From the IMG/VR virus record IMGVR_UViG_3300037086_000398, positions 4,362 through 68,361 of that record: DNA of 64,000 nucleotides; one strand, given 5' to 3'. A program made the translations under genes and the position numbers. The notes under the pieces were generated by a model that saw nothing but the letters and a program-made list of their open reading frames with translations, had not been told where the DNA came from and ran no database searches. Below, one piece after another: positions 1 through 15,519 of the stretch. Each line of letters begins with the position of its first letter. The stretch's first letter is position 1. This DNA comes from a virus.

Positions 1-2
1 CC

Positions 3-983
3 GCAGCTAGTTCTGTTCTTCCATTCACTGAACTTGGCTTCATTCATCATGACTGGATTGCTGACTCAAACTTCGAAAGCGTTATCTACACAATGAGGCT
101 CGGTGATTTCGGATTCGGAGCGAGTGCAAAACTCCTCTATGTTCCCTTCACTCACTACAACGATTGGGGACTTTCACTTGGAAATGGTTACTATAGTGAG
201 GGGGTCATCACCTTCAACACTTCATACAACTTTTTCTCCAACTACTATTTCTTTGGTCTTGCAGTCGGTTTGAACTCAAAGCTTGCTTATCGGTATGTTC
301 CTTCAAATATTGCTGAGGATCAGTCTACTATTGCTGGAGTTTTTGACATAGGACTTCTTACTCGATTCAATCTTTTCAAGTTCTATTACTCAACTGACAA
401 AAACTTTTCAATAGGTCTCACCGTGAAGAATCTTGGATTTACATCTCTTCAAGAGAATCTTCCAACAATGACCACTGTTGGTTTGGCCTATTCTCCAATC
501 AGACCATTGACTATTGATGTGGATCTCAACTTTCCATTCAGCTTTGACAATAGGTATCCAGCCATGTCTCCTTATTTTGCCATAGGAGCTAACGTCGAAA
601 TGGCAGAGTTTATTTCATTGCAGACTGGGTTTAGAGTGACGGGTGGAGACCCATTTGTTACTCTGGGAGCTTCTGTCAATATAGGCACACTCTCTATTGT
701 TGCCAACTATAATCTCAACCTAGCAAGCTCTGGGTTCGCCGATCAGTTCTCTGTAGAGGCCAAGTTTCAACTCGGTGATTTTGGAAGAGCAGTTGCTAAA
801 GTAAAAGCCGATGAACTTTATCTTGACGGTGTTGAAGCTTTCGCCAATGGAGATTTACTCAAGGCAATTCAGCTCTGGAATGAATGTCTAAGCACATGCC
901 CCAAGTATGATCCTGCAAGAAGCAATATAAAGGTAGCCCAGGATAGCATCAATCTGCAAGAGCAAATGAATCAGGAGTTTTAG
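3..983 (+). CDS. hypothetical protein, 5'-truncated at window edge; beta-strand-rich with C-terminal TPR-like helices
   Basis: Frame is open from nt 3 with no stop upstream of the listed Met at 93. Alternating hydrophobic/aromatic beta-like pattern. C-terminus 'ELYLDGVEAFANGDLLKAIQLWNECL' is TPR-like. Confidence 0.45.
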   Translation, partial: AASSVLPFTELGFIHHDWIADSNFESVIYTMRLGDFGFGASAKLLYVPFTHYNDWGLSLGNGYYSEGVITFNTSYNFFSNYYFFGLAVGLNSKLAYRYVPSNIAEDQSTIAGVFDIGLLTRFNLFKFYYSTDKNFSIGLTVKNLGFTSLQENLPTMTTVGLAYSPIRPLTIDVDLNFPFSFDNRYPAMSPYFAIGANVEMAEFISLQTGFRVTGGDPFVTLGASVNIGTLSIVANYNLNLASSGFADQFSVEAKFQLGDFGRAVAKVKADELYLDGVEAFANGDLLKAIQLWNECLSTCPKYDPARSNIKVAQDSINLQEQMNQEF

Positions 984-1210
984 TGTCTTATCATAGATTT
1001 ACTAAACTTCGGATGATTGGAGCGAGGTGTGGGAACTGCAAAAACTTCAATGCGAAAGAAAGTCTCTGTGAGAGAATCATCAATCCGGCAAACAAACAGA
1101 AAGATTTCGTTATTGCAGGGCCTACTGTGGAGTCTGAGCTCTGCATTTGGTGGGAGGATGATGGGTCGCTCTCAGGAAGCCAAAGTCCTTCTACTCGGTC
1201 CAACGTGTGA
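983..1210 (+). CDS. small Cys-containing protein, possible divergent SCR-family member
   Basis: 'IGARCGNCKNF...C...CIWWED' loosely resembles the family pattern; ATGA-coupled to the upstream gene. Confidence 0.35.
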   Translation: MSYHRFTKLRMIGARCGNCKNFNAKESLCERIINPANKQKDFVIAGPTVESELCIWWEDDGSLSGSQSPSTRSNV

Positions 1211-1463
1211 TAATTGCCTAAGAAGCCTTCCAGCACAGTTTCTCATTATAGATGCTAAAGACGAACAATGTTGTGGGCTTGTCATAGACGCCGGAACCGA
1301 ACCAAACTCCTATCTGATTCGCTATCACTTTCCTCCTGAGAAGAGTTGTGATCATTGGGAAGAAAAGAAGCAAGAGCTCTTTCGTCGCAAGAAGTTTCTT
1401 CGTATTAGAAAAGCTTTGCAAAAGCTATCAAACATTAAAGTTGGACAATGGATTGGAATGTGA
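1158..1463 (+). CDS. SCR-family small Cys4 protein
   Basis: 'AKVLLLGPTCDNC...CC...SCDHWEE'. Start chosen at the internal Met; the track ORF 1017-1463 has a longer N-terminus. Confidence 0.5.
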   Translation: MMGRSQEAKVLLLGPTCDNCLRSLPAQFLIIDAKDEQCCGLVIDAGTEPNSYLIRYHFPPEKSCDHWEEKKQELFRRKKFLRIRKALQKLSNIKVGQWIGM

Positions 1464-1639
1464 AAACATCACAAGCTGCTAAAAATCATCTTGAAGGAAA
1501 AACATGTAATACATGTCCAAACAACATCGACAATGTGTGCCGATTTGCCAGCAATAATCGACCACTTCCAAAGAAGAAAACTTGCAAAAACTGGGGACTA
1601 TGGACCATGATCTATATGGGTGGAAATAAGATTTTATGA
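1448..1639 (+). CDS. SCR-family small Cys4 protein
   Basis: 'AAKNHLEGKTCNTC..C...TCKNW'. Confidence 0.7.
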   Translation: MDWNVKTSQAAKNHLEGKTCNTCPNNIDNVCRFASNNRPLPKKKTCKNWGLWTMIYMGGNKIL

Positions 1640-1833
1640 CAGAGACAGAACTAGCAAAGGCATTTTTATCGGATCAGATTTGTGATACATGCAAAACTTT
1701 CAAAAACAAGGGAGCGTGCATGATTTTTACACCATACGGTCCAACTGGAACACTACTTTGGAAAAAAATGGAAGCCAGAGGAACATGTGAGCATTGGAGA
1801 GAAAAGGAGATTCGACCCGGTGATTTCGAATGA
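1636..1833 (+). CDS. SCR-family small Cys4 protein
   Basis: 'LAKAFLSDQICDTC..C...GTCEHW'; ATGA overlap with the previous gene. Confidence 0.7.
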   Translation: MTETELAKAFLSDQICDTCKTFKNKGACMIFTPYGPTGTLLWKKMEARGTCEHWREKEIRPGDFE

Positions 1834-2080
1834 TGTTGTAGCGAAAAATCTTCTCGAGGGCAAAAACTGTGACGCGTGTTGGCATGGAAACAGTCTGAAC
1901 AAGAACTGTAATCTCTTGCTTGATGTCGTCCATGAAAAGTGGCTGGACGAGATGAGGAAAAAGAGAGCAGCTGGAATAACATACGCAATCAATGACGACA
2001 ACGATTATGTATCTTTGATGAGAGATCGACCAGAAATCTATACTTGTAGACGATGGGAGAAAAATCATCCACATGTCTGA
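1787..2080 (+). CDS. SCR-family small Cys4 protein (start uncertain)
   Basis: 'VAKNLLEGKNCDAC..C...YTCRRW'. The only in-frame ATG is at 1787, overlapping the previous gene by 47 nt; an in-frame GTG lies at 1820. Confidence 0.55.
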   Translation: MSIGEKRRFDPVISNDVVAKNLLEGKNCDACWHGNSLNKNCNLLLDVVHEKWLDEMRKKRAAGITYAINDDNDYVSLMRDRPEIYTCRRWEKNHPHV

Positions 2081-2264
2081 TGATCAAATCGCTAAAAATC
2101 TATTGAGTGGCAAAGGATGCAACACTTGCAAGGTTAATAAACAGGACCGACATTGTTTCACTTGGTGGGGAGAGGCTATTGGATGGCAATGGGAAAGAAT
2201 GCATGAGAGTGGAACTTGCGATCAGTGGGCACTAAATGAAATAGATGTAGCATTCATCAGATGA
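2073..2264 (+). CDS. SCR-family small Cys4 protein
   Basis: 'IAKNLLSGKGCNTC..C...GTCDQW'. Confidence 0.7.
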   Translation: MSDDQIAKNLLSGKGCNTCKVNKQDRHCFTWWGEAIGWQWERMHESGTCDQWALNEIDVAFIR

Positions 2265-2389
2265 ATGAGATAACAGAGGCTAAACATCTTTTACTCAATC
2301 AGCTGTGTAAAACCTGTAAATGGTGTTCAGTGACGGAGCGGCCAGCGTGGGACATGAATGGTAATCCTTTTCGAGAAGTTGTATGTTAG
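2261..2389 (+). CDS. truncated SCR-family member (43 aa)
   Basis: 'MNEITEAKHLLLNQLCKTCKWC...' has the N-terminal helix and CxxC but lacks the C-terminal TCxxW; ATGA-coupled. Confidence 0.4.
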   Translation: MNEITEAKHLLLNQLCKTCKWCSVTERPAWDMNGNPFREVVC

Positions 2390-2478
2390 AAATGTGCGCG
2401 CGAATATCATATAATTGAGCATCAACAGATCTATAATCCAAACAAAATCACTATGATGAGAGTTGAACCTTTTGATTT

Positions 2479-2736
2479 TTGTCAATATTGGCAGGAGAAA
2501 AAATGAAAGAGAACGCACCCTATTTTACTGATATGGATCTTTCAGCAGATGTTTATGCTAAGCGACTCATTCTTGGAAAGATTTGTGAGAACTGCAGAAA
2601 TTGTTCAGTCAGCAGTCACTGGTCAAAATGGACACAACAAACCATGCACTCTTATTCTTGTGAACTTGACAAGAGAAAATCAAGAGGACAATCAGTCAGT
2701 CGTGAAGATACCTGCCATCATTGGAAACAACGATGA
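2479..2736 (+). CDS. SCR-family small Cys4 protein
   Basis: 'VYAKRLILGKICENCRNC...C...DTCHHW'; likely start at the Met at 2503. Confidence 0.6.
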   Translation: MSILAGEKMKENAPYFTDMDLSADVYAKRLILGKICENCRNCSVSSHWSKWTQQTMHSYSCELDKRKSRGQSVSREDTCHHWKQR

Positions 2737-2957
2737 TAGAAGAGCCAGCTACCCTGGCAAAACGTCTCCTCATTGGAAAATGTTGCATGTTTTGCAAACA
2801 TTGTATTTATCGAGAAGAACCTGTTCATGATCCAAAGACTAAAGAAGTTGTCCGAACTATTCTATGGAAATGCCATTGTAGATGGCCATCGTCGCCTGCC
2901 GATGTATTTCCAGTCGAGCCCGAATACTATTGCAATCATTTCGAACCAAGGTTATAA
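2721..2957 (+). CDS. SCR-family small Cys-rich protein
   Basis: 'LAKRLLIGKCCMFCKHC...CHC...C'. Confidence 0.55.
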   Translation: METTMIEEPATLAKRLLIGKCCMFCKHCIYREEPVHDPKTKEVVRTILWKCHCRWPSSPADVFPVEPEYYCNHFEPRL

Positions 2958-3079
2958 GCATATTTCATCACAAATGTATGCCGGTACACGTAAAACCGAT
3001 TCCATATAGAGTCATAGGATATCCTCGTTTCAGATTTTGGCTGCTCACTTTGTTTGGTGAGATTGATTTTGTCGATAGA

Positions 3080-3610
3080 ATGAAGGCAAAGATCGATGAA
3101 ATCAATAGAGCAGAAAAAACTGCTTGGATCGCAACAAAACCAAAAGTAGCTCCTAGACCACAAAGTCGCATGCCAGTTTTATTTCCTCAAGTGAATGGTC
3201 CAAACTCTTACTCTCGAGAAGAGATAGAGGAAATGTACCATAAGAATCGTATTTCTCCTGTTAATCCTGACGTGCAGATTCAGGAGTTAGGAAATGGCAG
3301 ACGTCTCATTAAAGTGGATGTTTCAAAGGGATCAAAAAAGAAGGTAAGTGAAAAACTTACTAAGATAAGGGATGATCTCAAAAGAGAAGCAGAAGATGAG
3401 CTCAAAAACGATTTGAGTGGAGTATATGATCAAGATTTGAATAGTCCAAAATTTCGAGCAACTCTAAATGAACAGTTGGCATTGGCTGGACTGAGGACGT
3501 TGCCAGACAATGTTATTACCAACAGAAGAAAACCGATAAAAAAGGAAGAGTTCCCACTTGACGGAATTGGAGATAGTAAATTCAGCAAAAAGCCTTCTAG
3601 AAGGACGTAG
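3080..3610 (+). CDS. hypothetical charged/helical protein
   Basis: ORF 2882-3610 with the first plausible Met at 3080 ('MKAKIDEINRAEK'); Lys/Glu-rich. Confidence 0.4.
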   Translation: MKAKIDEINRAEKTAWIATKPKVAPRPQSRMPVLFPQVNGPNSYSREEIEEMYHKNRISPVNPDVQIQELGNGRRLIKVDVSKGSKKKVSEKLTKIRDDLKREAEDELKNDLSGVYDQDLNSPKFRATLNEQLALAGLRTLPDNVITNRRKPIKKEEFPLDGIGDSKFSKKPSRRT

Positions 3611-3788
3611 TTGCATCAACTGTCTCTTCCAATTGGCATGGATTCCTCCTTTTCCTAATGATCCAGACTTTAGGTTCTGCACTAACTTCAAACTAAAAGA
3701 CAGACCTTCAGAAAATATTTGTGATAAATACATTTATGACGACCTTATATTAGAAAATGGTGAACGATTTCCACATCACTATGAATAA
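3558..3788 (+). CDS. SCR-family small Cys4 protein
   Basis: 'SAKSLLEGRSCINC..C...ICDKY'; overlaps the previous gene in the +1 frame. Confidence 0.6.
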   Translation: MTELEIVNSAKSLLEGRSCINCLFQLAWIPPFPNDPDFRFCTNFKLKDRPSENICDKYIYDDLILENGERFPHHYE

Positions 3789-3960
3789 AGAAATATGGGC
3801 CGCCCAAATAGCTAATGCTCTTCTCAGTGGTAGAACATGTGATGCATGTGCTTTTGGTGTTCATCTAGGAATTGGATCCTATTGTTCAAAGCAAGGAGAT
3901 CATTTCTACACAAAAGTGCCATATGGCAGGACTTGTAAAAAATGGACACTGTACAGATAG
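3781..3960 (+). CDS. SCR-family small Cys4 protein
   Basis: 'IANALLSGRTCDAC..C...RTCKKW'. Confidence 0.65.
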   Translation: MNKEIWAAQIANALLSGRTCDACAFGVHLGIGSYCSKQGDHFYTKVPYGRTCKKWTLYR

Positions 3961-4100
3961 CCAAGGCTCTTCTTGAAGGCAAGGGTTGTGATACATGTAA
4001 ACATGCTTATTACGACGTTTTAGGATTTCTCTGCAAACATCAAGGTCAATATGATTTTAGCAGACCAGATACTGGAACTTGCAAAGAGTGGGAAAGATGA
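3942..4100 (+). CDS. SCR-family small Cys4 protein (52 aa)
   Basis: 'IAKALLEGKGCDTC..C...GTCKEWER'; this is below the 60-aa ORF-track cutoff and was found by hand. Stop overlaps the next start (ATGA). Confidence 0.65.
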   Translation: MDTVQIAKALLEGKGCDTCKHAYYDVLGFLCKHQGQYDFSRPDTGTCKEWER

Positions 4101-4366
4101 AAACTAATGAGATAGCCAAAAGGCTTCTCGAAGAAAAAGGTTGCAAAGATTGTACCTATGCAATCAACTGTAATTTTCGTAAGAAAGACAAATCTCTTGT
4201 TACGTGTGAAAGATGGGTGAAGTTTAAAGAAGGGGTGTTCCCAATGGCCCCTGCAGAAGACAAGATCTACTATCAAAAACTAGTTTATAGGAATGGAGAT
4301 GGAAAAAGACAATCTAGACAAACTAGCAAAAAATCTCCTCGAAGAAAAGATTTGCCGAGTTTGTGA
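4097..4366 (+). CDS. SCR-family small Cys4 protein
   Basis: 'IAKRLLEEKGCKDC..C...VTCERW'. Confidence 0.6.
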   Translation: MKTNEIAKRLLEEKGCKDCTYAINCNFRKKDKSLVTCERWVKFKEGVFPMAPAEDKIYYQKLVYRNGDGKRQSRQTSKKSPRRKDLPSL

Positions 4367-4610
4367 AAACTCTCGAGGCAAACATTGTATCCTCAACACA
4401 AAAGAGAGTAGGTTTGCTTTTTCAGAAGAGGGCACGTGTGAACTGTGGAAAGAAAAAGATAAAATGACTCGGGACAGAATCAAAACTATGGGAGAGGAGG
4501 CAACTCTTTTGATGGATGTGGCTGATAAGATTTTGGAACAATATAAGAAGGAAGAAAAAGAAAGACAAAATGGACAATCAGATTTGGAAAGTAGCAAAAG
4601 AACTTCTTGA
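4293..4610 (+). CDS. SCR-family small Cys4 protein with charged C-terminal tail
   Basis: 'LAKNLLEEKICRVC..C...GTCELW' followed by a Lys/Glu-rich tail. Confidence 0.6.
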   Translation: MEMEKDNLDKLAKNLLEEKICRVCENSRGKHCILNTKESRFAFSEEGTCELWKEKDKMTRDRIKTMGEEATLLMDVADKILEQYKKEEKERQNGQSDLESSKRTS

Positions 4611-4878
4611 AGGAAAAATCGAAGTCACTTATGACGGCGCATATCCTAACTCATGTTCTGGTACTCTCACCATCACGATCAATGATCAGATCATTTATGA
4701 AAAGCATGGCTGTTGTCACTCAACCGGTAGTGTAAGCTTTACTCCAGACTGGGAAGAGATTGTCGATAGTAGTGGCAGTTTGATTTGGGATGATGCCGAC
4801 AAGGCTAATGACAGGGTCAGAGAAGCTGTCGAAAAGGTTCTCTCTGGAATCAATGTCTGCTGTGGAGGATGTGTTTAG
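4570..4878 (+). CDS. chimeric protein: SCR-family N-terminal helix joined to a different Cys-rich C-terminal domain
   Basis: 'MDNQIWKVAKELLEGK' is followed by 'YDGAYPNSCSG...HGCCHSTG...INVCCGGCV'. The family CxxC/TCxxW pattern is absent. Confidence 0.45.
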   Translation: MDNQIWKVAKELLEGKIEVTYDGAYPNSCSGTLTITINDQIIYEKHGCCHSTGSVSFTPDWEEIVDSSGSLIWDDADKANDRVREAVEKVLSGINVCCGGCV

Positions 4879-4907
4879 AGCGATGCGGTCAGGGCATATA
4901 ATCTATC

Positions 4908-5489
4908 ATGGACCGAATAGACTGCTACATGATTTTGGGCATATCATCTGAGGCTTCCGCCGAGGACATCAAGTCTGCCTATAGGCAGAAGGCTATTCAA
5001 TTCCATCCTGATCACAATCCCGATAAAGCAGCCACCGAGATGTTCAAGCGTCTCACAGAAGCCTACAATGCTTTGATGGGGGTGACTTCTGTAAAGAGGG
5101 AAACTTCTCAATCTCGTCCGACTCAGTCAAAATATGAATCATATGATGAAGAGAAGGAACAAGACTACGACTATGATGATGGTTGGGTGAAGGGGAAGAG
5201 GTGGAACCCCAATCAATCTTCTTCCAAAAAGAAACACTACGAGAAATACACTCAGCCCAATGAACCAACTGCCACCCTTGCATGCAAAGCCAGCGTGGGT
5301 TCTTTTCATCGAGATCTTTACAGAAACCGACTTCTGGCTCTGAGAGCCAATCTCAAGGATTTTGATCCAAAGGGAACGATGACTTGGGATGAAGATTGGC
5401 GAACTCTCATATCGTATTTTTCCATCAAGATCGTCACAAAAGAGAGTCTCTGTCGCGCTTTCGACAAAGTAATGAAGAGCTGGGTCTAG
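4908..5489 (+). CDS. J-domain protein (DnaJ-like co-chaperone, J domain only)
   Basis: 'DCYMILGISSEASAEDIKSAYRQKAIQFHPDHNP' contains the canonical HPD J-domain motif. Confidence 0.7.
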   Translation: MDRIDCYMILGISSEASAEDIKSAYRQKAIQFHPDHNPDKAATEMFKRLTEAYNALMGVTSVKRETSQSRPTQSKYESYDEEKEQDYDYDDGWVKGKRWNPNQSSSKKKHYEKYTQPNEPTATLACKASVGSFHRDLYRNRLLALRANLKDFDPKGTMTWDEDWRTLISYFSIKIVTKESLCRAFDKVMKSWV

Positions 5490-5532
5490 AGGGGCATTTT
5501 AGAGCAATTGCTCCAAAGCATATAATCTCTAT

Positions 5533-5835
5533 ATGGAAACAAACGAAGCAGTCGAGATGCTCCAATCCAAGATGAATGCTGGAGAAGGTGATCAGCGCGG
5601 AGACATGAAGCTTCCGATGCAAATAGGGGCTCTCAACCGCAGGAATCTCCGTTTCGCTCTTGAAAATCTGAAGGATGATATTGAGGCCGAGGATCTTGAG
5701 TGTTCCGTCTCGATCATAGAAAACAAAAGCCTGATCAGCTCTCTTTTCTGGGTCAAGCTTCACAATGCCACGGTGAGAGTGATGCTCGCCACTTCTCTTT
5801 CGATTGTCGATTTCGTTGATCGCTACAACAGCTAA
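5533..5835 (+). CDS. hypothetical protein
   Basis: ORF in the prevailing + orientation; an antisense ORF at 5434-5892 competes with it. Confidence 0.3.
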   Translation: METNEAVEMLQSKMNAGEGDQRGDMKLPMQIGALNRRNLRFALENLKDDIEAEDLECSVSIIENKSLISSLFWVKLHNATVRVMLATSLSIVDFVDRYNS

Positions 5836-5846
5836 AGGAGAAAATA

Positions 5847-6263
5847 ATGGGTTGGAAACAACAGATTCCTTGGGACAAGTATACTTGGGCAATGTATGCT
5901 GCGGGCGACAAAGATGGTCACTGGCAGATGTTCCGAGACGAGCCTCTTTGTGACGAGTGGAAGGGTTTTTGGTGGCATTCCATATTCGATCCGAAGACTG
6001 TCAACGAAGCCGATCTCACCGTCAAGATTCCATATACTGGTGACTGGAAGAACTCTCTGACCGTCCGTCCTGGAATGGAAGAGAAGCTCGGCAAGAAAAT
6101 CGCCAAAGCTCAAGCTGTTCGTGAGGCTGCAAGAGCCAAGGAAGATGCAGAGCAGAAGGCCATACTCAAGAGTGACGAGAAAGAGACTGTCACAAAGGTG
6201 GTCGATGCCTCGTTGGAACAGCCTCCCAAGCGGAAGCGTGGCCGACCTCGGAAGGTAAAGTAG
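5847..6263 (+). CDS. hypothetical protein with C-terminal AT-hook-like basic tail
   Basis: Trp-rich N-terminus; C-terminus '...PPKRKRGRPRKVK' has the GRP AT-hook motif. Confidence 0.45.
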   Translation: MGWKQQIPWDKYTWAMYAAGDKDGHWQMFRDEPLCDEWKGFWWHSIFDPKTVNEADLTVKIPYTGDWKNSLTVRPGMEEKLGKKIAKAQAVREAARAKEDAEQKAILKSDEKETVTKVVDASLEQPPKRKRGRPRKVK

Positions 6264-6273
6264 GGAGGGTCAG

Positions 6274-6480
6274 ATGAAACTCTTTTTGGCGGACATTTAC
6301 TACACAGAACGTTGGTATGAATCGAACGAGGAGAAGAAGCACCACGCCATCCATCTAGTCAAGGCTGAGAACGAAGACCAGGCGAAGGAAAAGGCTGAGC
6401 GCTTCATCGAAGCCAAGACCAGTGCGTATAGCGTCTACTACGACGTGGTCTCGTGTGTCGTCACGGAGACGATTGAGTGA
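6274..6480 (+). CDS. hypothetical protein
   Basis: 68-aa ORF in + orientation. Confidence 0.3.
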   Translation: MKLFLADIYYTERWYESNEEKKHHAIHLVKAENEDQAKEKAERFIEAKTSAYSVYYDVVSCVVTETIE

Positions 6481-6643
6481 TGTGGATGAAGACTCTCAAA
6501 GCTTGGATGGAACGCAGAAAGCAGAAGAAACAGAGTATTAAAGCTTTCAATGGGGTTCGTCAAGCCAGAGAGTTCAACGAAAAGCTTCTTGAGTTATCTC
6601 GGCAAGAACGAGAACGCTCAGAATATGAACAGTGATCATAATA

Positions 6644-6667
6644 GCCCCTCGAAAGAGGGGTTTTTTA
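6644..6667 (+). terminator. rho-independent terminator (CCCCTC-GAAA-GAGGGG family)
   Basis: Hairpin cccctc/gaaa/gagggg followed by TTTTTT. Confidence 0.7.
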
Positions 6668-6758
6668 TTTCTGCGGTGCAAGCATCTGCTTGCGGCATGA
6701 GCATATTTCATCACATAATAAGCTACCGTAAAGGTGCTAAAAGAAGAAGGAGTTAAGA

Positions 6759-6917
6759 ATGGCAACGAAGAAGATTACTGGAGTTTCCTACGAGTCCGCT
6801 CGCGAGATGTGGCGCGCGCGCCCGACGATCAATGGTCGCAGGGTGCATCTGGGCTACTTCACCTCGGAGCGCAAGGCCATCGCCGCCGTCCGCGCGGGCC
6901 TCACCAACACTCGCTAA
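6759..6917 (+). CDS. small AP2-domain DNA-binding protein (52 aa) on a GC-rich island
   Basis: 'GVSYESAREMWRARPTINGRRVHLGYFTSERKAIAAVRAGL' resembles the AP2 beta-sheet motif. GC content is far above the surrounding sequence, and terminators flank it on both sides. Confidence 0.5.
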   Translation: MATKKITGVSYESAREMWRARPTINGRRVHLGYFTSERKAIAAVRAGLTNTR

Positions 6918-6941
6918 TCGCAGCGAGTATCTTTCCTTCCA

Positions 6942-6971
6942 GGGCTGAGAGTTCCTCTCAGCCCTTTTTTG
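6942..6971 (+). terminator. rho-independent terminator
   Basis: Hairpin 'gggctgagag-ttcc-tctcagccc' followed by TTTTTT. Confidence 0.65.
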
Positions 6972-7011
6972 TCTAACGTGTATTTTTCCGGCAGGCATAT
7001 TTCATTCAGAG

Positions 7012-7236
7012 GTGAGTATGATCTTTCATCGACACAAATACGATAAGGTTCAGAACGATGGCTATCAATATTGCACTAAGTGTGGCAGAGCCATTCTCGC
7101 TCCATGCAATCACAAATGGAAACTCATCCATGACATCAAAATGGACGGGTGGGACCCCTCTGGTACGATGTGGATTTTCAAGAAAGTATATGAGTGTGAA
7201 ACGTGCCACGCCGTCAGAACTGAGACCATTGTGTGA
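7012..7236 (+). CDS. small zinc-ribbon protein
   Basis: 'CTKCGRA...CNHKW...CETCHAV' gives paired CxxC motifs. Confidence 0.45.
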   Translation: MSMIFHRHKYDKVQNDGYQYCTKCGRAILAPCNHKWKLIHDIKMDGWDPSGTMWIFKKVYECETCHAVRTETIV

Positions 7237-7418
7237 AAGACACTACACCAAGAAAACTCTTTGATATCTCTTGTTTCATTTCTGCTGGAGGTATTATAGC
7301 TCTCGGTGTGCTTACTATTATCTTCCATTTCTCCCTCTTCTATCTAGCAATTCCACTTGTACTTCCGGCAGTATTAGTAATGAGTATGGTTTTATACGCT
7401 TGGTTCAAATCAAGCTGA
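7233..7418 (+). CDS. small membrane protein
   Basis: Two hydrophobic helices; ATGA-coupled. Confidence 0.35.
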   Translation: MKDTTPRKLFDISCFISAGGIIALGVLTIIFHFSLFYLAIPLVLPAVLVMSMVLYAWFKSS

Positions 7419-7429
7419 AGGAGAGTGAT

Positions 7430-7714
7430 ATGTTGCTTACTACTATGGATGAAAAATTAAAGATTCAAAAGATCAAGGAGATCATTGATGATGGTGTTAT
7501 TTTTGCCTATGATGATAGGGCTGAAAGGATCTATGGAGTCATCACCGACAGAAGCAGTCACTATGATTTACATCCTCTCACTAAGTTGAGTATGCTTGTT
7601 GAAGAGCTCGAAGATTCACTTGAAAGAAATCATGATTCTCCAAGAGATTTTTTGAACGATTCAACAAGACGGCTACAGTTGATCAGAGAAGAACTAGAAA
7701 AACAGGGAGTATGA
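7430..7714 (+). CDS. hypothetical protein
   Basis: ORF 7271-7714 with an internal Met at 7430 after 'ggagagtgat'. Confidence 0.3.
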   Translation: MLLTTMDEKLKIQKIKEIIDDGVIFAYDDRAERIYGVITDRSSHYDLHPLTKLSMLVEELEDSLERNHDSPRDFLNDSTRRLQLIREELEKQGV

Positions 7715-7715
7715 A

Positions 7716-8081
7716 ATGAGTATGAAAGACATTGTTTTTGGGTCCTATAAGAGGTTGCAAGGATGGATTATTTTCTGTTGTGTCTTGTGTCTTCTTGTAG
7801 GATTTGTTTTTGGGCTTCTGTTTCCAATACCCAAAGTAGCCTTAGTTCCAAAAACAGCTCCAACGATCTTGGTGGAACAAACAGATGTTCCTTTCACTGT
7901 CGATTCGATAGGATTTTTTGATAGTTTCAATGCAGACGGCTGGAACCTTTCTCATTATAGAGACACTGAGAGATGGCGTATAATGGTATTTGTCAACGAC
8001 AATGTGACTATTCAGTATTCAGAGAAGTCATGGAATGCTTTGATAAAGGATTTGAAGGAGACAAAGTGGCCAGAAAGGTAA
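7716..8081 (+). CDS. membrane-anchored hypothetical protein
   Basis: N-terminal transmembrane helix 'WIIFCCVLCLLVGFVFGLLF'. Confidence 0.35.
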   Translation: MSMKDIVFGSYKRLQGWIIFCCVLCLLVGFVFGLLFPIPKVALVPKTAPTILVEQTDVPFTVDSIGFFDSFNADGWNLSHYRDTERWRIMVFVNDNVTIQYSEKSWNALIKDLKETKWPER

Positions 8082-9052
8082 TCTATCGAATAAAAATTGG
8101 ATCCGCCATGTATGGTCTGATGCATGCTGATTCTGACACAGATTACATGGAAGTATTCCTTCCGTCTCCTGAAGAGGTGCTTGGCCTTCATCCAATCGAC
8201 GAGGTAGACAATTCCACCAAGTCTTCTGGTTCTGAGACAAGGAACACCCCTGAAGATGTTGATGACAAGTCTTACTCTTATGCAAAGTATCTCCACATGT
8301 TGCTTGGAAACAACCCCAACATCGTTGAGACTATTTTCGCCAGAGACGACAATGTTCTCACTTCATCTGGAGACATTCAGGAACTTCTGATTCATCCTGA
8401 GAGAATCGTCTCCCAGAGAATCTCCAACAAGTTTTTTGGCTACGCCCTGTCTCAGAAGGCGAAGTTGAACGAGAAGTACAACCGGTATGAGTCGCTCAAA
8501 ACTGGTCTTGCTGAGATGGAAAAGATTTACGAACAGGCTCTTGGAAGACATTACGCCATTGACGAGATAGATTCAATTACTCTCAACAAGTTGCTAAAGT
8601 ACTACAAAAGTGGTCGTCAGCATGTGGAACGGTTCCACAAGGGACTCGACCTTGATATGATTCACGACCATGTGAAAAGTGAATTCGAGAACTATGGATG
8701 GAGAGTGAAGACCGATTCTTTCGAGAAGCTGCACTACGATCTGAAAAATGGATACCACACAATTCGTATCCTTGGCGAAGGAATCATCCTTCTAAAGACT
8801 GGTCACCTTGAGTATCCGATCTCTGGAAAACTTAGGGAAGACATTTTGGCCATTAGGGCTGGTACTGTCGAACTTGACCATCTTTACGAAATGTTCGATT
8901 CCTATAAAGTAGAATACGATAGGGCCGTCGAGGCCTGTACTCTTCGAAAGGATCCGGATTATGATTGGGCAAATAAGCTTCTTGTGGATGCTATGCAGCG
9001 CCACATTATAGATCAGACGGATGATGCTCTCATAAGAGCAATCAAACATTGA
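8030..9052 (+). CDS. predicted nucleotidyltransferase (Pol-beta superfamily, RlaP-like)
   Basis: 'IGSAMYGLMHADSDTDYMEVF' matches the hG[GS]x(9-13)DhD nucleotidyltransferase signature; start is approximate. Confidence 0.5.
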   Translation: MECFDKGFEGDKVARKVIYRIKIGSAMYGLMHADSDTDYMEVFLPSPEEVLGLHPIDEVDNSTKSSGSETRNTPEDVDDKSYSYAKYLHMLLGNNPNIVETIFARDDNVLTSSGDIQELLIHPERIVSQRISNKFFGYALSQKAKLNEKYNRYESLKTGLAEMEKIYEQALGRHYAIDEIDSITLNKLLKYYKSGRQHVERFHKGLDLDMIHDHVKSEFENYGWRVKTDSFEKLHYDLKNGYHTIRILGEGIILLKTGHLEYPISGKLREDILAIRAGTVELDHLYEMFDSYKVEYDRAVEACTLRKDPDYDWANKLLVDAMQRHIIDQTDDALIRAIKH

Positions 9053-9102
9053 AACAACGGCTCCTGAAAGGGAGCCGTTGTTATTTTGGCATATTTCTCT
9101 AT

Positions 9103-9615
9103 ATGAAAGAGCCACGAATAGCAGTATACCCTGGTAGTTTTGACCCTCCTACTCTGGGCCATTTATTGCTCATCTTAAAAGCGGCCAATATTTTCGACAA
9201 AGTCTATGTGATGATTGGTGTCAACCCTCAAAAACCAAATAATTTTCTCAGTCCAGAAATAAGAAAAGATCTTCTGGAAAAATCAATTTCTAGTTGTCTT
9301 CATGGTATACACAATATTGAGGTGGAAATTTATACCGGAGCCACTGTTCTCTTTTGTGTCGAGCACAGTGCCACCAACATTGTGCGTAGTTTTAGATCAG
9401 TGACCGACTTTGAGTATGAAAGATCTGTCGCCAGTGTCAATCTTAAACTTAAACCTGATATTCAAACGGTTTTTTTTCATCTTCCAGATGAAGCCAGTTG
9501 TATCAGTTCTTCAACAGTACGAGAGCTTTATAACCTAGGCCTATTGTACGATTTACGCAAGTTTGTCCCTGACGAAGTAGCTGAGCTGTTGATCAATAAA
9601 CACCATTCTAGTTAG
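9103..9615 (+). CDS. coaD: phosphopantetheine adenylyltransferase-like cytidylyltransferase (CoaD/PPAT family)
   Basis: 'IAVYPGSFDPPTLGHL' carries the (T/H)xGH nucleotidyltransferase motif; '...RSVTDFEYE...SSSTVRE' matches conserved PPAT motifs. Confidence 0.6.
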   Translation: MKEPRIAVYPGSFDPPTLGHLLLILKAANIFDKVYVMIGVNPQKPNNFLSPEIRKDLLEKSISSCLHGIHNIEVEIYTGATVLFCVEHSATNIVRSFRSVTDFEYERSVASVNLKLKPDIQTVFFHLPDEASCISSSTVRELYNLGLLYDLRKFVPDEVAELLINKHHSS

Positions 9616-9641
9616 GCATATTTTATACAGGAGGATCACGA

Positions 9642-9815
9642 ATGGACAATGACAGAATTGAGTGTCCGAACTGTCTCAGGGGACAGATGATGGAAGTCAA
9701 AGACAAAGATGACAAGTGGACCGAATACCAGTGCAGGAAATGTAGATCTCTGAAAGTTCTGATGAAACCTGATCCTGTCTGCATCACTTTTACCCGACAA
9801 ACACAAGGAGATTGA
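9642..9815 (+). CDS. small zinc-ribbon protein (57 aa)
   Basis: 'ECPNCLRG...CRKCRS'; RBS aggagg lies 7 nt upstream. Found by hand. Confidence 0.4.
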   Translation: MDNDRIECPNCLRGQMMEVKDKDDKWTEYQCRKCRSLKVLMKPDPVCITFTRQTQGD

Positions 9816-9816
9816 C

Positions 9817-10116
9817 ATGGCTCTAGATCTCGACAGCTATAAGCAAGGTCTTGAAACTGGCCTTAAGCAGGCACCCAAAACTATCGTAAGGACAACGAAG
9901 AAGAGTTGGTCGATTCCAACAGTTCTTTTCATCGTTTTTCTCATCCTAAAGCTCACCCACACCGTTGATTGGAGCTGGTGGATAATCACTCTTCCACTGT
10001 GGATAGGACCAGCTTTTGTAATCGGTGTGATGGCGGCCATTGGAGGAGTCATTCTCGCAATCCTAGCAGTTGTGGGAGTTATTGCCCTCATTGCGTGGAT
10101 TTTTGGTGGACGATGA
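9817..10116 (+). CDS. membrane protein
   Basis: Three predicted transmembrane helices. Confidence 0.4.
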   Translation: MALDLDSYKQGLETGLKQAPKTIVRTTKKSWSIPTVLFIVFLILKLTHTVDWSWWIITLPLWIGPAFVIGVMAAIGGVILAILAVVGVIALIAWIFGGR

Positions 10117-10117
10117 A

Positions 10118-10546
10118 ATGACAGATGATTTAGAAAAAAAGTTGGCCACGCATTTCAATTTCTTCAACTTCCTGAATCCAGAGTTCGGATTTGAGTGTGC
10201 AGACGGATGGTTTCAAATCATTTGGGATCTATGCGAAGATCTCGACAAAATGGAAAGAGAAAGGTGGGCTGCAATCCCTGCAGATGAGAAGGCCAAGATT
10301 TTTCTTGAAGGAGGAAATCCTGGCCTTCAAGTTATTCAAGTCAAAGAAAAGTTTGGAACTCTCAGATTCTATGTTGAAAACTCAGACGACAAGATGTACA
10401 AGAGGATAAGTGAAGCTGAAAAAGCTTCTGCTGTCACGTGTGAGGTTTGTGGAAAACCTGGAACATTGACTGGAAAATCATGGGTCAGAACAACTTGTCC
10501 AGAGCATACGAAGAAAGATAAAGATGTTGATACAAGTATTTCATGA
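10118..10546 (+). CDS. hypothetical protein with C-terminal Cys cluster
   Basis: 'TCEVCGKPG...TCPEH'. Confidence 0.35.
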   Translation: MTDDLEKKLATHFNFFNFLNPEFGFECADGWFQIIWDLCEDLDKMERERWAAIPADEKAKIFLEGGNPGLQVIQVKEKFGTLRFYVENSDDKMYKRISEAEKASAVTCEVCGKPGTLTGKSWVRTTCPEHTKKDKDVDTSIS

Positions 10547-10955
10547 TGTTGTAATGGATCATTCTCTCATATTCGAAATCAGACAGAAAGTAATTGATCC
10601 ACCAAAGCCTGAGGAAAAGAAAGAAGAACCAACGACACAGCCAGTGTCTCTAAAAAAGACACTTTGGAACAAGAAAGAGCGGCTTGAACAACAAGAAAAA
10701 GAAAGAGAAGAATCAGCTCGCAAGGCTTTAGAGCTTTTAGAGAACAAGCCCGCATCAACTCCACAATCTCCGAGAGAATATGGAGTTGAAATTCATTATT
10801 GGACCGACAAAGCTGGAACCAATTCTTCGAGTATATACAACCACCTAGACCGAACAAGGCCTACGGCCTTAGCGCATATTGACCATCTTACAAGGTTGAT
10901 CAACAAATACAATGCTGCAGAGAAAAGAAAACCAAAGCCAAAAGGAAAAAAGTAA
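10524..10955 (+). CDS. hypothetical protein, paralog A of a tandem pair
   Basis: N-terminus 'MLIQVFHDVVMDHSLIFEIRQK' is shared with the next gene. Confidence 0.4.
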   Translation: MLIQVFHDVVMDHSLIFEIRQKVIDPPKPEEKKEEPTTQPVSLKKTLWNKKERLEQQEKEREESARKALELLENKPASTPQSPREYGVEIHYWTDKAGTNSSSIYNHLDRTRPTALAHIDHLTRLINKYNAAEKRKPKPKGKK

Positions 10956-11248
10956 TGTTGGTACAAGTTTTTCACGACTATTGGATTGAACACAATCTCG
11001 TGATTGATGTTCATCTCAAAATCCTTGGAGAAGACAAACAAGCTCCCCTAAATGAGCACAGTGGTCAATCACCACACAGGTATGCTATTGAAGTCACTTA
11101 TTTTTCATCCCCAAATAAAAGTGTTAGAACACTAGTTCGCAGTTTTCCAGAACCAGAAGATTATCAGACTGTTGTAAAAGAACTAAATAAGATAGCTAGA
11201 AAGATAAACAGTCTAAAGAGAAAAGAAATCCAATCGGTTGAAAAATAA
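10955..11248 (+). CDS. hypothetical protein, paralog B of a tandem pair
   Basis: 'MLVQVFHDYWIEHNLVIDVHLK'. Confidence 0.4.
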   Translation: MLVQVFHDYWIEHNLVIDVHLKILGEDKQAPLNEHSGQSPHRYAIEVTYFSSPNKSVRTLVRSFPEPEDYQTVVKELNKIARKINSLKRKEIQSVEK

Positions 11249-11253
11249 CGCAT

Positions 11254-12360
11254 ATGACAAAAAGGGATTACTACGAAGTTTTAGGCATTGATAAAACAGC
11301 TTCTAAAGACGATATCAAAAAGGCCTATAGAAAATTAGCCCTCCAGTTCCATCCGGATAGAAACCAAGACAAACAAGCCGAAGAACAATTCAAAGAAGCC
11401 ACAGAGGCCTATGATATTCTCATGGATTCTGGCAAGCGGGCTCAATATGATCAATTTGGTTTTGGTGGATTGAATCAGAATGGATTCCGTCCAAATCCAC
11501 AAAACTATCGTGGATTTGAAGACATTTTTGGTGGCATGCCGTTTAATGATTTTTTCAATCGAGCATGGGGTGGAGAAAACCCATTTAACAGTTTCTTTGG
11601 TGGTGGAATCCCAAAACAGAATAGAGTTCTTGTTGGAGCTGATGCTCAATACCGTCTCAATTTCGAATTAAAAGACGTTCTTCACGAAAAGAAAATAGAG
11701 TTCGATTTTCCAAGAAAAGAGATTTGTGACACGTGTCATGGTAATGGAATAGCTTCAGACGGCAAAGAAACAATGTGTCCAGCGTGTGGTGGTAGAGGAC
11801 GTATCAGAACCAAACAACAAGGATTCTTTGTCATGGAAATGGGATGCCAGAGATGTGGTGGAACAGGTATGACCATTGACAAGCCTTGCCATACATGCAA
11901 GGGCGAGAAGTTAGTATTAAAAACAAAAACCGTCAAGATCAGGATTCCTTCAGGAATTAGTGATGGGGCAACTCTGAAGCTCAACGGTGAGGGACATCAG
12001 AGTCCAAATGGTGGCCCTTCTGGTGATTTATATATAACCGTAAAAGTAAAATCTCATCCTCACTTTAAGCGTCAGGGAAACTCTCTTCATTGCATTGCTG
12101 AGGTTCCATTTGTTCAAGCAATTTTAGGAGATACAATTCCATTGGTTTGGATAGATGATACAACATTGCTTATTGTTGTTCCTTCTAACACTAAAAATGG
12201 AGAAGTCATAAAAATACCCGGAAAGGGCATTGCTGGAGACACTCTCTTTATCAATGTCATAATCAAAATGCCTAAGACCCTGACAGACAGTCAGAAGCAG
12301 GCCATTAAATCACTGAATCTTGAAAAAGATGTCAGTATGCAGCTCAAGGAGATAAGCTGA
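11254..12360 (+). CDS. dnaJ: DnaJ (Hsp40) chaperone, full-length type I
   Basis: J domain with HPD ('LALQFHPDRN'), a Gly/Phe-rich linker, four CxxCxGxG zinc-finger repeats ('CDTCHGNG', 'CPACGGRG', 'CQRCGGTG', 'CHTCKGEK'), and a C-terminal domain. Confidence 0.85.
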   Translation: MTKRDYYEVLGIDKTASKDDIKKAYRKLALQFHPDRNQDKQAEEQFKEATEAYDILMDSGKRAQYDQFGFGGLNQNGFRPNPQNYRGFEDIFGGMPFNDFFNRAWGGENPFNSFFGGGIPKQNRVLVGADAQYRLNFELKDVLHEKKIEFDFPRKEICDTCHGNGIASDGKETMCPACGGRGRIRTKQQGFFVMEMGCQRCGGTGMTIDKPCHTCKGEKLVLKTKTVKIRIPSGISDGATLKLNGEGHQSPNGGPSGDLYITVKVKSHPHFKRQGNSLHCIAEVPFVQAILGDTIPLVWIDDTTLLIVVPSNTKNGEVIKIPGKGIAGDTLFINVIIKMPKTLTDSQKQAIKSLNLEKDVSMQLKEIS

Positions 12361-12833
12361 TGTGGTTACTATTGATTCTTATTTTTCTTTTCTTTGCGGC
12401 AGCCACTCTTTTGAAAGTTCTCAAGAATTTAAATTCGGTGGTTTTCTTTCTTGCTTTTATTCTTAGTTTGGGAACATTTTTCACTATAGGAACCTATAAT
12501 GTTAAGACGACAAGCAAGCTTCCATCCAAAGTTGATGAGATTCCAATCTATTTCATGAAAGATGTAAAAACTGATCGAGATCCATTTGTTATAGGAATTA
12601 AAGACATTTCAACAAATAGTTTTTATTTCTATCTCAAGGATGGTAATCTTCTCAGAAAAATGGACTTGAAGGTAGAAAATTTGAAGGTCGTCGATAAGGA
12701 TGTTTCGCCCATGTTAACCGCCATTTCAAAAACTGATGTTACGGGGTGGTTAAGTCTAGGATTGAGTGGATCGACCTCATATCAGATACGGCTTCCAGTT
12801 TCACTTGTTACTAAAGTGTCCCCTCAACAATAG
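12360..12833 (+). CDS. membrane-anchored hypothetical protein
   Basis: Two N-terminal transmembrane helices; ATGA-coupled to dnaJ. Confidence 0.4.
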   Translation: MWLLLILIFLFFAAATLLKVLKNLNSVVFFLAFILSLGTFFTIGTYNVKTTSKLPSKVDEIPIYFMKDVKTDRDPFVIGIKDISTNSFYFYLKDGNLLRKMDLKVENLKVVDKDVSPMLTAISKTDVTGWLSLGLSGSTSYQIRLPVSLVTKVSPQQ

Positions 12834-12959
12834 AATTAGGAAGCCTTCTCTCCTTGTTGCCTTTTTCCCATCTATCATTTACAAGGAGGGCAAGAACATC
12901 ATTCATTGTCTTATTTTCCCTCATTGCAACTATTTTCAGCTTTTTCCAAGTTTCCAAAT

Positions 12960-13267
12960 CAATTTGAACAGGTTTCCTAATTGCCATGTTTTCTCCTCTA
13001 CATAGAATTATGCCAAGTTTTGGATACTAGTATATTTGTTTTACAATTATTCAACTTTTTGAAATTGGATCATTATGATTCACATTATTAGACAAAATGA
13101 TACAGTGATCATTTTACTGTTCCAATAAGAAACTAGTTTCATGAAATAGCTTCAAAAGTGTATCAAAAAGAAACAAAGCAAAGAAGTGTCAAAAGGATGA
13201 CCAAATCAATTTTTTTCTAGAAAAGCAAAGTTATTATTGTAAACCAAAAATAAAGGAGGGCTATACA
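12960..13267 (+). promoter_or_regulatory. long AT-rich intergenic region, probable promoter region upstream of hsp20
   Basis: A ~300-nt non-coding stretch with TTGAAA/TTTACA-like hexamers and an RBS 'aaaggaggg' before the ATG at 13268. No promoter could be mapped precisely. Confidence 0.3.
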
Positions 13268-13666
13268 ATGTATCCTATGGAAAGACTTATGAGAGAGTTT
13301 CTAGGCGAAGGCCTTAATACAGCGCGCAAGTGGGCCTATCAATGTGGGGCCAAACCACTCCACACACATTGGGATGAGAAAGACGGTAGTTACATCGTAA
13401 GTTCAGAAGTACCAGGTCTTGAAAAGGACAGGGTGACGGTGACCTACAAGGACGATTACCTCACCGTCAAAGCTGACTATAGTACTGAGGATGAAGAGAA
13501 GTGTGAGTGTGGTTGCATGAGAACTGGGGAGTACTCCTTTAACGGCTATTTCCCTGGAATCGATGCTTCAAAAATCGACGCTCAGTTGAAAAACGGAATT
13601 CTCACAATCACTCTACCAAAGGGCGCTGAAGTTGCTGGTACCACCATCGACATAAAAAGCGAATAA
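13268..13666 (+). CDS. small heat shock protein (Hsp20/alpha-crystallin family)
   Basis: C-terminal alpha-crystallin-domain motif 'AQLKNGILTITLPK'; length 132 aa. Confidence 0.7.
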   Translation: MYPMERLMREFLGEGLNTARKWAYQCGAKPLHTHWDEKDGSYIVSSEVPGLEKDRVTVTYKDDYLTVKADYSTEDEEKCECGCMRTGEYSFNGYFPGIDASKIDAQLKNGILTITLPKGAEVAGTTIDIKSE

Positions 13667-13707
13667 CTCCACAAATTGGAGTTGGTCATTTCTTCCCTAA
13701 GAGAGAA

Positions 13708-13737
13708 GGAGACCTGGAAACAGGTCTCCTTTTTTTG
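13708..13737 (+). terminator. rho-independent terminator
   Basis: 'ggagacctg-gaaa-caggtctcc' followed by TTTTTTT. Confidence 0.75.
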
Positions 13738-13751
13738 TAAGATAAACTTAT

Positions 13752-14102
13752 ATGAATGATTTCATTATTGATATGAGCATGCATCTGACTGGAAAACTCT
13801 TTGTAGCTACTGAGAGTGGAAAAACCTCTATCCTTTGGGTATTGAAAGACGTCTATGATTTTCAACACAGCGCTGATCAGGATGCCCTTTTAGTTCATCT
13901 CTATTGTGATGAAAACATTATGACTGATAAACTTCACTACCTACAACTCAACAAAGTCATCACGTCTGATAGTTGGGACATTGTTGGATACGGTGACTTT
14001 GGATTTCAAGAATCAAACTTAGACCAAAAACGGCTGCTTATATCAACTATCTTCAATTCACTTGAAATAAGAGAAAATACAAAATGGAAGTTGGCGACGT
14101 AA
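13752..14102 (+). CDS. hypothetical protein
   Basis: 116-aa ORF. Confidence 0.35.
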   Translation: MNDFIIDMSMHLTGKLFVATESGKTSILWVLKDVYDFQHSADQDALLVHLYCDENIMTDKLHYLQLNKVITSDSWDIVGYGDFGFQESNLDQKRLLISTIFNSLEIRENTKWKLAT

Positions 14103-15458: not shown

Positions 15459-15519
15459 TCATTTCATCCATCCTACATAAAGATAACCTTGTAATTTAAA
15501 AGTTTTCTGGAGGCTGATA

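Follow-up and report, generated by a model that had tools for sequence, protein, structure and literature searches.

In Bacillus megaphage G, a zinc-ribbon family has expanded to about 35 copies, for which roles as transcription factors or in DNA binding were proposed (Iyer et al., 2021; PMC7824862); this was the only account of a similar expansion found in our literature search. T-even phages encode a highly diverse set of internal proteins whose sole common part is a capsid targeting sequence (CTS) that is conserved (PMC3012670). Prochlorosins and SCIFF/ranthipeptides are likewise encoded by many small genes in tandem, whose products pair a conserved N-terminal region with a variable one containing Cys residues. 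In high-potential iron-sulfur proteins (HiPIPs; PF01355) and in the small β and γ subunits of benzylsuccinate synthase, four Cys residues hold a cubane, and such a center is one possibility for the family described here, i.e., small proteins with four conserved Cys residues (Cys4) encoded in tandem arrays in viral DNA (IMG/VR record IMGVR_UViG_3300037086_000398, positions 4,362 to 68,361). The whole of this 64,000-nucleotide stretch is referred to below as the window. As in phage G, we are dealing with a giant phage carrying tens of small, Cys-based, putatively metal-binding paralogs (PMC7824862); unlike the phage G zinc ribbons, the ligands are arranged as CxxC + C + C rather than as two CxxC knuckles, and the phage is T4-like and of a different lineage.

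The Cys4 mini-domain family is large, restricted to phages, and previously undescribed. Its copies arose by old tandem duplication, and purifying selection has kept each of them, together with its particular loops, in no fewer than two diverged giant T4-like phages. Tentatively, with a probability of about 45%, we read the arrays as encoding phage-specific, single-domain metal-knot proteins of about 50 residues that form a repertoire of small binding modules, their having partners being suggested by architecture and evolutionary pattern.

The members have in common an N-terminal helix (consensus x-I-A-K-N-L-L-E-G-K), a CxxC pair, a first loop of 5–25 residues (typically 7–12), a third Cys, a second loop of 10–45 residues (typically 11–16), and a C-terminal (T)CxxW/F/Y motif, a layout that was proposed in the initial annotation of this DNA and holds across members. 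To this family a hidden Markov model (HMM) profile was fitted from 12 copies and run on every stop-free segment in all six frames of the window. There were 28 firm copies (each E ≤ 5.5e-4), every one on the + strand, and the other frames and the − strand gave nothing at E < 0.2. Thirteen of the firm copies lie in array A (1017–4610), 11 in array B (60708 to past the window end at 64000), and four are isolated; about five more are marginal or derived. The initial annotation had put the total for the genome at more than 35, which is above the 28 firm and about five marginal copies in our count, which covers the window only. It had also assigned about 15 copies to array A, of which 13 were firm and the remaining two proved to be marginal ends (983–1210 and 4516–4878). 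The second array, said to run from 60.7 kb past the window end, was borne out by 11 firm matches, and the proposed isolated copies at 25191, 44960, 50149, and 50298 were recovered by the HMM, although those at 57170 and 57372 were not.

The open reading frame (ORF) listing and pattern scans showed a chain of small + strand genes spanning 983–4878. The matched segments in array A were 1017–1460, 1439–1636, 1630–1830, 1724–2077, 2022–2261, 2240–2386, and 2476–2733 in its first half, and 2706–2954, 3540–3785, 3754–3957, 3939–4097, 4061–4363, and 4284–4607 in its second, the array being broken by an unrelated ORF at 2882–3610. Chaining of the genes by ATGA junctions and overlaps, also noted initially, was verified, with ATGA at 1636, 2261, 2733, and 4097 and overlaps of 8–76 nt elsewhere. 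At the other end of the window the last gene of array B (63943) is cut, and within that array 61955–62134 (E 0.009), a handle-like N-terminus (i.e., one resembling the family's N-terminal helix) followed by a CxxC...CxxC ribbon, is marginal or derived. The copies and their candidate relatives are as follows; orthologs are those in the 732-kb relative described below.

983–1210, + strand: divergent first member, CGNC-x9-C-x27-CIWW, lacking the AKxLL helix; HMM E 0.17; ortholog 81% identical at the same position in the 732-kb relative.
1161–1463, + strand: array A member, domain from 1161, ORF start possible at 1017; HMM E 1.4e-5; ortholog at L006 5749–6189, 71% identical.
1448–1639, + strand: array A member, 63 aa; HMM E 2.8e-20; ortholog 53% identical.
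1636–1833, + strand: array A member, 65 aa, ATGA junction to the preceding gene; HMM E 7.8e-19.
1820–2080, + strand: array A member whose loop 2 is long (45 aa) and whose start is either 1787 or 1820; HMM E 1.9e-9; ortholog 54% identical.
2073–2264, + strand: array A member, 63 aa; HMM E 1.3e-20.
2261–2389, + strand: short member, 42 aa, ending at the fourth Cys and possibly truncated; HMM E 1.9e-5, N-terminal half only; L006 ortholog segment longer.
2503–2736, + strand: array A member with the promoter-like site 2387–2415 upstream; HMM E 2.4e-8.
2733–2957, + strand: array A member with a long loop 1 and extra Cys residues; HMM E 2.7e-5; ortholog 54% identical, loop lengths kept.
3558–3788, + strand: array A member, C-terminal motif ICDKY; HMM E 2.6e-6.
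3781–3960, + strand: array A member; HMM E 5.8e-19.
3942–4100, + strand: array A member, 52 aa (P0001), first AlphaFold target (pLDDT 68.6); HMM E 3e-21.
4097–4366, + strand: array A member with a C-terminal tail; HMM E 2.1e-14.
4299–4610, + strand: array A member with a 50-aa helical tail; HMM E 3.5e-17; ortholog P0011 in the 732-kb phage, 65% identical.
4570–4878, + strand: handle-like N-terminus (VAKELLEGK) on another Cys-rich body, segment 4516–4878; HMM match to the helix only, E 0.18; ortholog 76% identical.
25191–25418, + strand: isolated divergent member downstream of the capsid genes; HMM E 5.5e-4.
44960–45244, + strand: isolated member with an extra N-terminal CxxC segment in front; HMM E 5.9e-20, residues 37–86.
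50149–50334, + strand: isolated member; HMM E 1.4e-16.
50298–50597, + strand: isolated member with a long loop 2; HMM E 2e-5.
57170–57572, + strand: two small genes (57170–57370 and 57372–57572), each encoding a CxxC...CxxC ribbon behind a handle-like N-terminus, which may be derived relatives; no match to the HMM; orthologs in L008.
60708–60899, + strand: first member of array B; HMM E 8.2e-5; ortholog 63% identical.
61955–64000, + strand: array B, 11 chained genes starting at 61955, 62127, 62248, 62434, 62810, 63021, 63184, 63350, 63524, 63690, and 63943; HMM E 2.7e-20 to 9e-3; collinear orthologs in L002/L008.

The window belongs to a distant T4-like phage, with genes for a portal protein (Portal_T4, 17104–19110), a prohead protease (Peptidase_S77, 20456–21364), and a capsid protein (Gp23, 22251–23834) that is at most 31–40% identical to anything in GenBank phages. 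A relative is the JGI contig 3300082197|Ga0673036_0000002, of 732,019 bp, in which locus L006 is syntenic with window 1–15 kb, array A included, and loci L002 and L008 are syntenic with window 50–64 kb, array B included. T4-like contexts recur elsewhere, i.e., T4 gp13 in the 732-kb contig and a T4 glucosyltransferase, dCMP deaminase, and Tad6 in L011.

Both arrays are collinear, gene by gene, with the 732-kb phage. By region, positional orthologs were 70% (helix), 57% (loop 1), 53% (loop 2), and 78% (C-terminal motif) identical, with loop lengths kept; the corresponding values between paralogs were 46%, 13%, 17%, and 40%. The bodies, called hypervariable in the initial annotation, therefore deserve the name when paralogs are compared (loops 13%–17% identical) but not when positional orthologs are (53%–57%), and the same figures speak against ongoing diversification. 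Ortholog identity of the family (median 56%) did not differ significantly from the 60% found for the remaining small genes in these regions (p = 0.3), and was below that of enzymes (76%–84%). In all 13 ortholog pairs the proportion of nonsynonymous differences (pN, 0.14–0.34) was smaller than that of synonymous differences (pS, 0.44–0.96), as expected of a real protein family. Because synonymous sites are saturated between the two phages (pS 0.6–0.96), we report only that pN < pS, and no ratio of substitution rates (dN/dS) proper. These results indicate that the family genes are translated, constrained, and long diverged, each having kept its own loops.

The DNA encoding the helix and CxxC had been described as conserved at the DNA level, and on this basis the array might be a DNA-level diversification system (cassette switching, a diversity-generating retroelement [DGR], or a recombination hot spot) that uses the conserved 40-nt handle. 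Repeats of 41 nt are indeed detectable at the handle. However, they are only 60%–80% identical between copies, as amino acid conservation predicts, and their synonymous positions vary freely (GCC, GCT, GCA, and GCG encode the Ala in 8, 10, 6, and 1 cases, and Leu positions use up to six codons), so that conservation is at the protein level. Cassette switching or a DGR, suggested earlier, found no support in the window arrays, which have no long near-identical repeats, no template/variable repeat pairs, and no inverted repeats. Since the positional orthologs are also collinear and conserved in a relative with saturated synonymous sites, this explanation is barely credible.

Within the domain, A7, L11, and the four Cys residues are invariant, and K8, L10, T46, and W50 are at least 90% conserved; the Thr precedes the last Cys and the Trp lies three residues beyond it. 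AlphaFold, run with an alignment of 123 members, gave a model of the product of 62434–62601 with a predicted local distance difference test (pLDDT) of 84.3 and a predicted template modeling score (pTM) of 0.57, consisting of a helix (residues 3–11), a β-hairpin (22–31), and a second helix (49–55). The model of the product of 3942–4100 was modest (pLDDT 68.6). In both, residues 3–11 formed a helix that was followed by a CxxC turn and a β-hairpin ending at the third Cys. Because the N-terminal helix block had pLDDT values of 80–90, the helix is modeled as part of the domain, with two loops and the C-terminal tail free to differ around a constant core. Instead of the conserved handle plus hypervariable body of the initial annotation, we have an N-terminal helix, variable at synonymous sites, inside one compact predicted domain (pLDDT 84), and in these models the family reads as one constant core plus two variable loops, not as a tag plus cargo.

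That this is not any described family, as the initial annotation had suggested, was supported by several searches. Scans against Pfam, PHROGs, and NCBIfam, using ten window members as well as the 123 aligned members, found no model for the Cys4 domain. Matches to Tcell_CD4_C (19 members, best E 0.005) reflected a short KTCxC-type motif and were treated as spurious; a PDB match to a cytochrome c555 trimer covered only the helix and CxxC, was inflated by three repeats, had no His after CxxC, and was rejected. A tblastn search with one consensus-like member against the 50,697 GenBank phage records gave no match at E ≤ 1, although the records were not checked for the presence of phage G; a megablast search with window 1–20000 gave no match in phages, and the Cys4 family motif was not found in any paper in our literature search. 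Homologs nevertheless exist in metagenomic sequence. A word-seeded search found 117, and a full HMM search of 1.84 billion representatives found 862 cluster representatives at E ≤ 1e-3. When a degenerate motif was scanned against 185,579 species genomes, there was one match, on a 3.9-kb metagenome-assembled genome (MAG) contig; the same motif matched three IMG/VR contigs and a handful of metagenome contigs, the latter again with arrays of seven copies in 3 kb. Nearly all homologs were 50–110 aa long, and in 188 of 205 the domain began no further than 10 residues in. A 114-kb JGI contig and a 22-kb Logan contig also encode a protein identical to the 52-aa product of 3942–4100.

How might such proteins work? 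The Cys4 center would bind a structural metal, either Zn(II) or, given the HiPIP-like ligand spacing and the context, a [4Fe-4S] cluster, and the metal would make a domain of about 45 residues stable enough to carry surfaces that vary. On this view, the set is most plausibly one of small binders or modulators with different partners. Each paralog would be a small binding module with its own partner, a host or phage protein; made in the cytoplasm from accessory gene blocks of the phage, the set would act as modulators or inhibitors in host takeover, anti-defense, or assembly control. Members outside the window that are fused to major-capsid-protein peptides (see below) would fit the same logic, i.e., a module plus a binding peptide. 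The "diversified effector" idea of the initial annotation remains our best functional guess.

Several points weigh against this reading. The role of the proteins as binding modules is suggested by their architecture and evolutionary pattern, and annotation of the members gave no link to a partner or phenotype. The confident model of the product of 62434–62601 had no structural neighbor, so that the fold gives no functional lead, and the center could be either Zn(Cys)4 or [4Fe-4S]. The word-seeded homolog set (n = 117) is biased toward AKNLL words, and inside the window the helix is less uniform, with Asn at its position in only 9 of 27 copies. Finally, only weak sigma-70-like sites were found in the window, and the T4 late-promoter motif TATAAATA was practically absent, with a single + strand copy in the 64 kb. 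A promoter-like motif, TTTAGAG-N16-(C)ATATAAT, did recur on the + strand at 4874–4902, 5498–5526, and 44373–44401, with a variant at 7956–7984, and a related site at 2387–2415 (TAGAAA-N17-TATAAT) sits in the sole gap within array A.

The ligand spacing of the family, which is like that of HiPIPs and unlike that of two-knuckle zinc ribbons, raised an alternative: the proteins could be HiPIP-like [4Fe-4S] proteins active in redox chemistry or as Fe-S accessory subunits, for example as electron carriers or structural partners for the phage's two radical S-adenosylmethionine (SAM) enzymes, whose genes both lie in the window. The spacing in the family, CxxC-x(5–25)-C-x(10–22)-C-x2-W, matches that of HiPIPs, for which the pattern is C-x2-C-x(~13–16)-C-x(~13)-C-x2-[WFY]; all firm members show it, with the loop lengths given above. 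In a profile search of 177,635 PDB sequences, HiPIPs made up five of the top ten matches, with all four Cys residues aligned (E 0.015–0.9). An hhalign comparison with a HiPIP alignment that was verified against PDB gave a score of 22.4 (P 4e-4, probability 34%), above all 100 of 100 column-shuffled controls (mean 13.0, sd 1.8, maximum 18.4), which keep Cys spacing and segment composition. The resemblance thus appears to exceed what spacing alone would give, but it is not established, all sequence scores falling short of significance thresholds. None of the 123 members matched the Pfam HiPIP model, and they have no Tat or signal peptide. The first AlphaFold model was of low confidence (pLDDT 68.6), Foldseek found nothing, and the fold evidence did not replicate. 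Thirty to sixty specialized paralogs would also be hard to explain by electron transfer alone. On balance we regard this alternative as unlikely, though it is the strongest of the alternatives.

Small Cys4 domains often bind nucleic acids, and the proteins might instead be sequence-specific DNA-binding or transcription factors, in parallel with the proposal made for the phage G expansion (Iyer et al., 2021; PMC7824862). The predicted isoelectric points (pI) ranged from 4.7 to 10.4, with a median of 6.5, the median net charge was 0, and many members were acidic, a spread that suggests diverse surfaces rather than a uniform DNA-binding charge. With no known DNA-binding fold recovered and no tblastn similarity to GenBank phage proteins, this role seems improbable.

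The T4-like setting of the window brings up another rival, i.e., that these are packaged internal (ejection) proteins, the helix serving like the T4 CTS and being cut by a gp21-type protease at L-L-E|G, and the variable bodies entering the host along with the DNA to counter restriction, as T4 IPI* does. The handle, with its LLE|G, fits (L/I)xE, the T4 prohead-protease motif. The window carries genes for a T4-type portal, a Peptidase_S77 prohead protease, and Gp23, a handle-like N-terminus occurs on a few other bodies (4570, 57170, 57372, and 61955), and many homologs bear capsid-protein fragments. However, only 58 of 120 members (48%) had Glu at the putative P1 position, with Leu in 29, Ala in 10, Ile in 6, and also Ser or Gln. 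The helix is predicted to be part of a folded domain, the bodies are related and form one domain (only four small genes having a handle-like N-terminus on another body), and the arrays are surrounded by accessory genes, outside the head module. Like T4 IPI, IPII, and IPIII, the family is found in T4-type phages and combines a short conserved N-terminus with diverse sequence that varies between related phages (PMC3012670), whereas its variable parts are loops of one homologous domain. On balance we think it rather unlikely that the proteins are packaged. The handle was also considered as a copy of the capsid propeptide and this was rejected, the handle HMM having no match to the N-terminus of the capsid protein; a likeness to the N-termini of T4 gp23 and gp24 was dropped as evidence.

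The capsid-protein fragments occur on homologs outside the window, and no copy within the window has one. Among 205 family proteins, 48 had a tail of 30 aa or more, and 27 of these 48 tails (about 13% of members) were pieces of the major capsid protein, of two kinds. The first (t1, 11 members) has the sequence LLPIVRxxFPxLIAxxIVSVQP..IFYLKY. Residues 59–95 of one such protein, P0126, align with residues 60–96 of the window capsid protein with 57% identity and the same residue numbering, so that the place of the capsid propeptide is taken by the Cys4 domain. The second (t2, 16 members; KxRKLxVxWxxES...) corresponds to capsid-protein residues ~288–340, i.e., a strand and the start of the spine helix. 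Tailed genes lie in arrays among early-type genes (L003, L007, L011, L012, and L014) and not beside the capsid gene.

t1-tailed members, outside the window: P0019, P0020, P0121, P0122, P0126, P0143, P0164.
t2-tailed members, outside the window: P0006, P0008, P0051, P0062, P0077, P0095, P0132, P0182.

A conserved capsid segment is known to be sensed by bacterial immunity. From an alignment to T4 gp23, we take the t1 segment to be the Gol region, the most conserved segment of gp23. In T4, the Gol region of gp23 binds EF-Tu and triggers the abortive-infection protease Lit (PMC3014915). The t1 tails of 11 members share this segment, with the 57% identity to the window capsid protein noted above, whereas here it is carried behind a Cys4 domain on a small non-capsid protein, for which any connection with EF-Tu or Lit would be hypothetical. 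A more specific version of the binding-module reading, which we consider rather improbable as a whole, is that phages invented the family as a HiPIP-like mini-scaffold holding [4Fe-4S] (or Zn), expanded to 30–60 specialized paralogs per genome in a clade of T4-like megaphages. Two conserved subfamilies would then present copies of the most conserved capsid segments (one being the Gol/EF-Tu-binding region, the other the P-domain strand together with the first part of the spine helix) as mimics that intercept host capsid sensors of the Lit or CapRel type, or that tune EF-Tu or capsid assembly, while the tail-less paralogs of the window would use their loops against other host targets.

One of the radical SAM genes (59112–60107; the other is at 34059–35372 on the − strand) lies, together with an HD hydrolase gene, just upstream of array B. 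This placement bears on the suggestion in the initial annotation that the proteins are precursors of ribosomally synthesized and post-translationally modified peptides (RiPPs), with the helix as leader, the Cys-rich part as core, and the product of 59112–60107 as maturase. The enzyme, which is of the MoaA/PqqE/SPASM-like group and below every NCBIfam cutoff, is encoded 600 nt upstream of the array in a gene order shared with the 732-kb relative, and weakly resembles the ranthipeptide maturase PapB over its full length (E 1.5e-9, well short of the family cutoff). However, its family has 3373 homologs at E ≤ 1e-10, about 55% identical and in many unrelated contigs; loci L009 and L010 of other phages have the enzyme with no Cys4 gene within 10 kb, and arrays L006, L011, L014, and L018, as well as array A, have no nearby radical SAM gene. 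Because homologs of the enzyme occur elsewhere without Cys4 neighbors, and arrays without the enzyme, the maturase link was rejected, and no conserved co-localization supports the suggestion. In the 732-kb phage, moreover, Clp and CDF (cation-efflux) genes occupy 5 kb between the enzyme and the array. The radical SAM core of the enzyme begins at residue 42, leaving 41 residues before it, too few for a RiPP recognition element (RRE) domain, and there was no PqqD or RRE match. When viral and metagenome contigs were searched for loci related to the radical SAM protein, there were no matches. Unlike the prochlorosins and the SCIFF/ranthipeptides, the family has no conserved enzyme link and is predicted to be folded, with the N-terminal helix, the supposed leader, and the C-terminal TCxW motif both part of the core. 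A RiPP role is therefore very improbable.

The radical SAM family of 59112–60107 is widespread and highly conserved among phage and MAG proteins. Ending exactly at the start of this gene is ORF 58879–59115, which terminates in the handle-like AKLAKLLLQGVDWRC, is 77% conserved in the 732-kb relative, and may be a remnant of a family member. In the 732-kb relative, a Clp_N/ClpB/cation-efflux block (L008 11675–16529) is inserted, relative to the window, between the HD gene and array B.

Near array A the phage encodes its own chaperone set, comprising a J-domain protein directly after the array (4908–5489), DnaJ (11254–12360), and HSP20 (13268–13666), all syntenic in the relative. These genes, and the Cation_efflux gene beside array B in the relative, were considered as a metal/chaperone link, which was then dropped. 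A homolog of UPF0164, an uncharacterized family of Treponema outer-membrane proteins, is at 93–983, with a full 401-aa gene at L001 3217–4422, and could be a clue to a spirochete host. A Peptidase_C39-like gene at L007 8931–9479 is directly upstream of three Cys4 genes.

Other window genes include RlaP and, besides the two radical SAM genes, a SpoT-like HD hydrolase; no tRNAs were found in the window. Strong hairpin terminators, all ending in TTTTTTTGTCT, follow the capsid gene and two other genes at ~23860–23890, ~25940–25965, and ~30600. The gene at 30722–33259 encodes a protein of 845 aa that combines major-vault-protein shoulder, vault repeat, and SPFH/Band 7 domains, and a tellurite-resistance-like block at 36189–40447 encodes XpaC-like (Halogen_Hydrol), TelA, OmpA/NMT1-domain, and VWA proteins. 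At 53365–57173 there is a signaling-type set (CYTH, PP2C phosphatase, and a 558-aa protein-kinase-like gene) that is conserved in the 732-kb relative.

Most small proteins of giant phages lack annotation, and here one coherent family of at least 862 sequence clusters can occupy 10% of a 64-kb genome stretch. If its copies are stable, metal-stapled binders with individually conserved surfaces, they would be a ready catalogue of phage effectors, as well as a natural scaffold for binders that is compact, at about 45 residues. Should the metal be [4Fe-4S], they would be, to our knowledge, the first reported phage HiPIP-like proteins, and massively expanded; a full-text literature search for HiPIP-like proteins in phages found nothing. 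The fusions to capsid fragments suggest an as yet unexplored connection of small accessory proteins with the conserved capsid segment that bacterial immunity senses.

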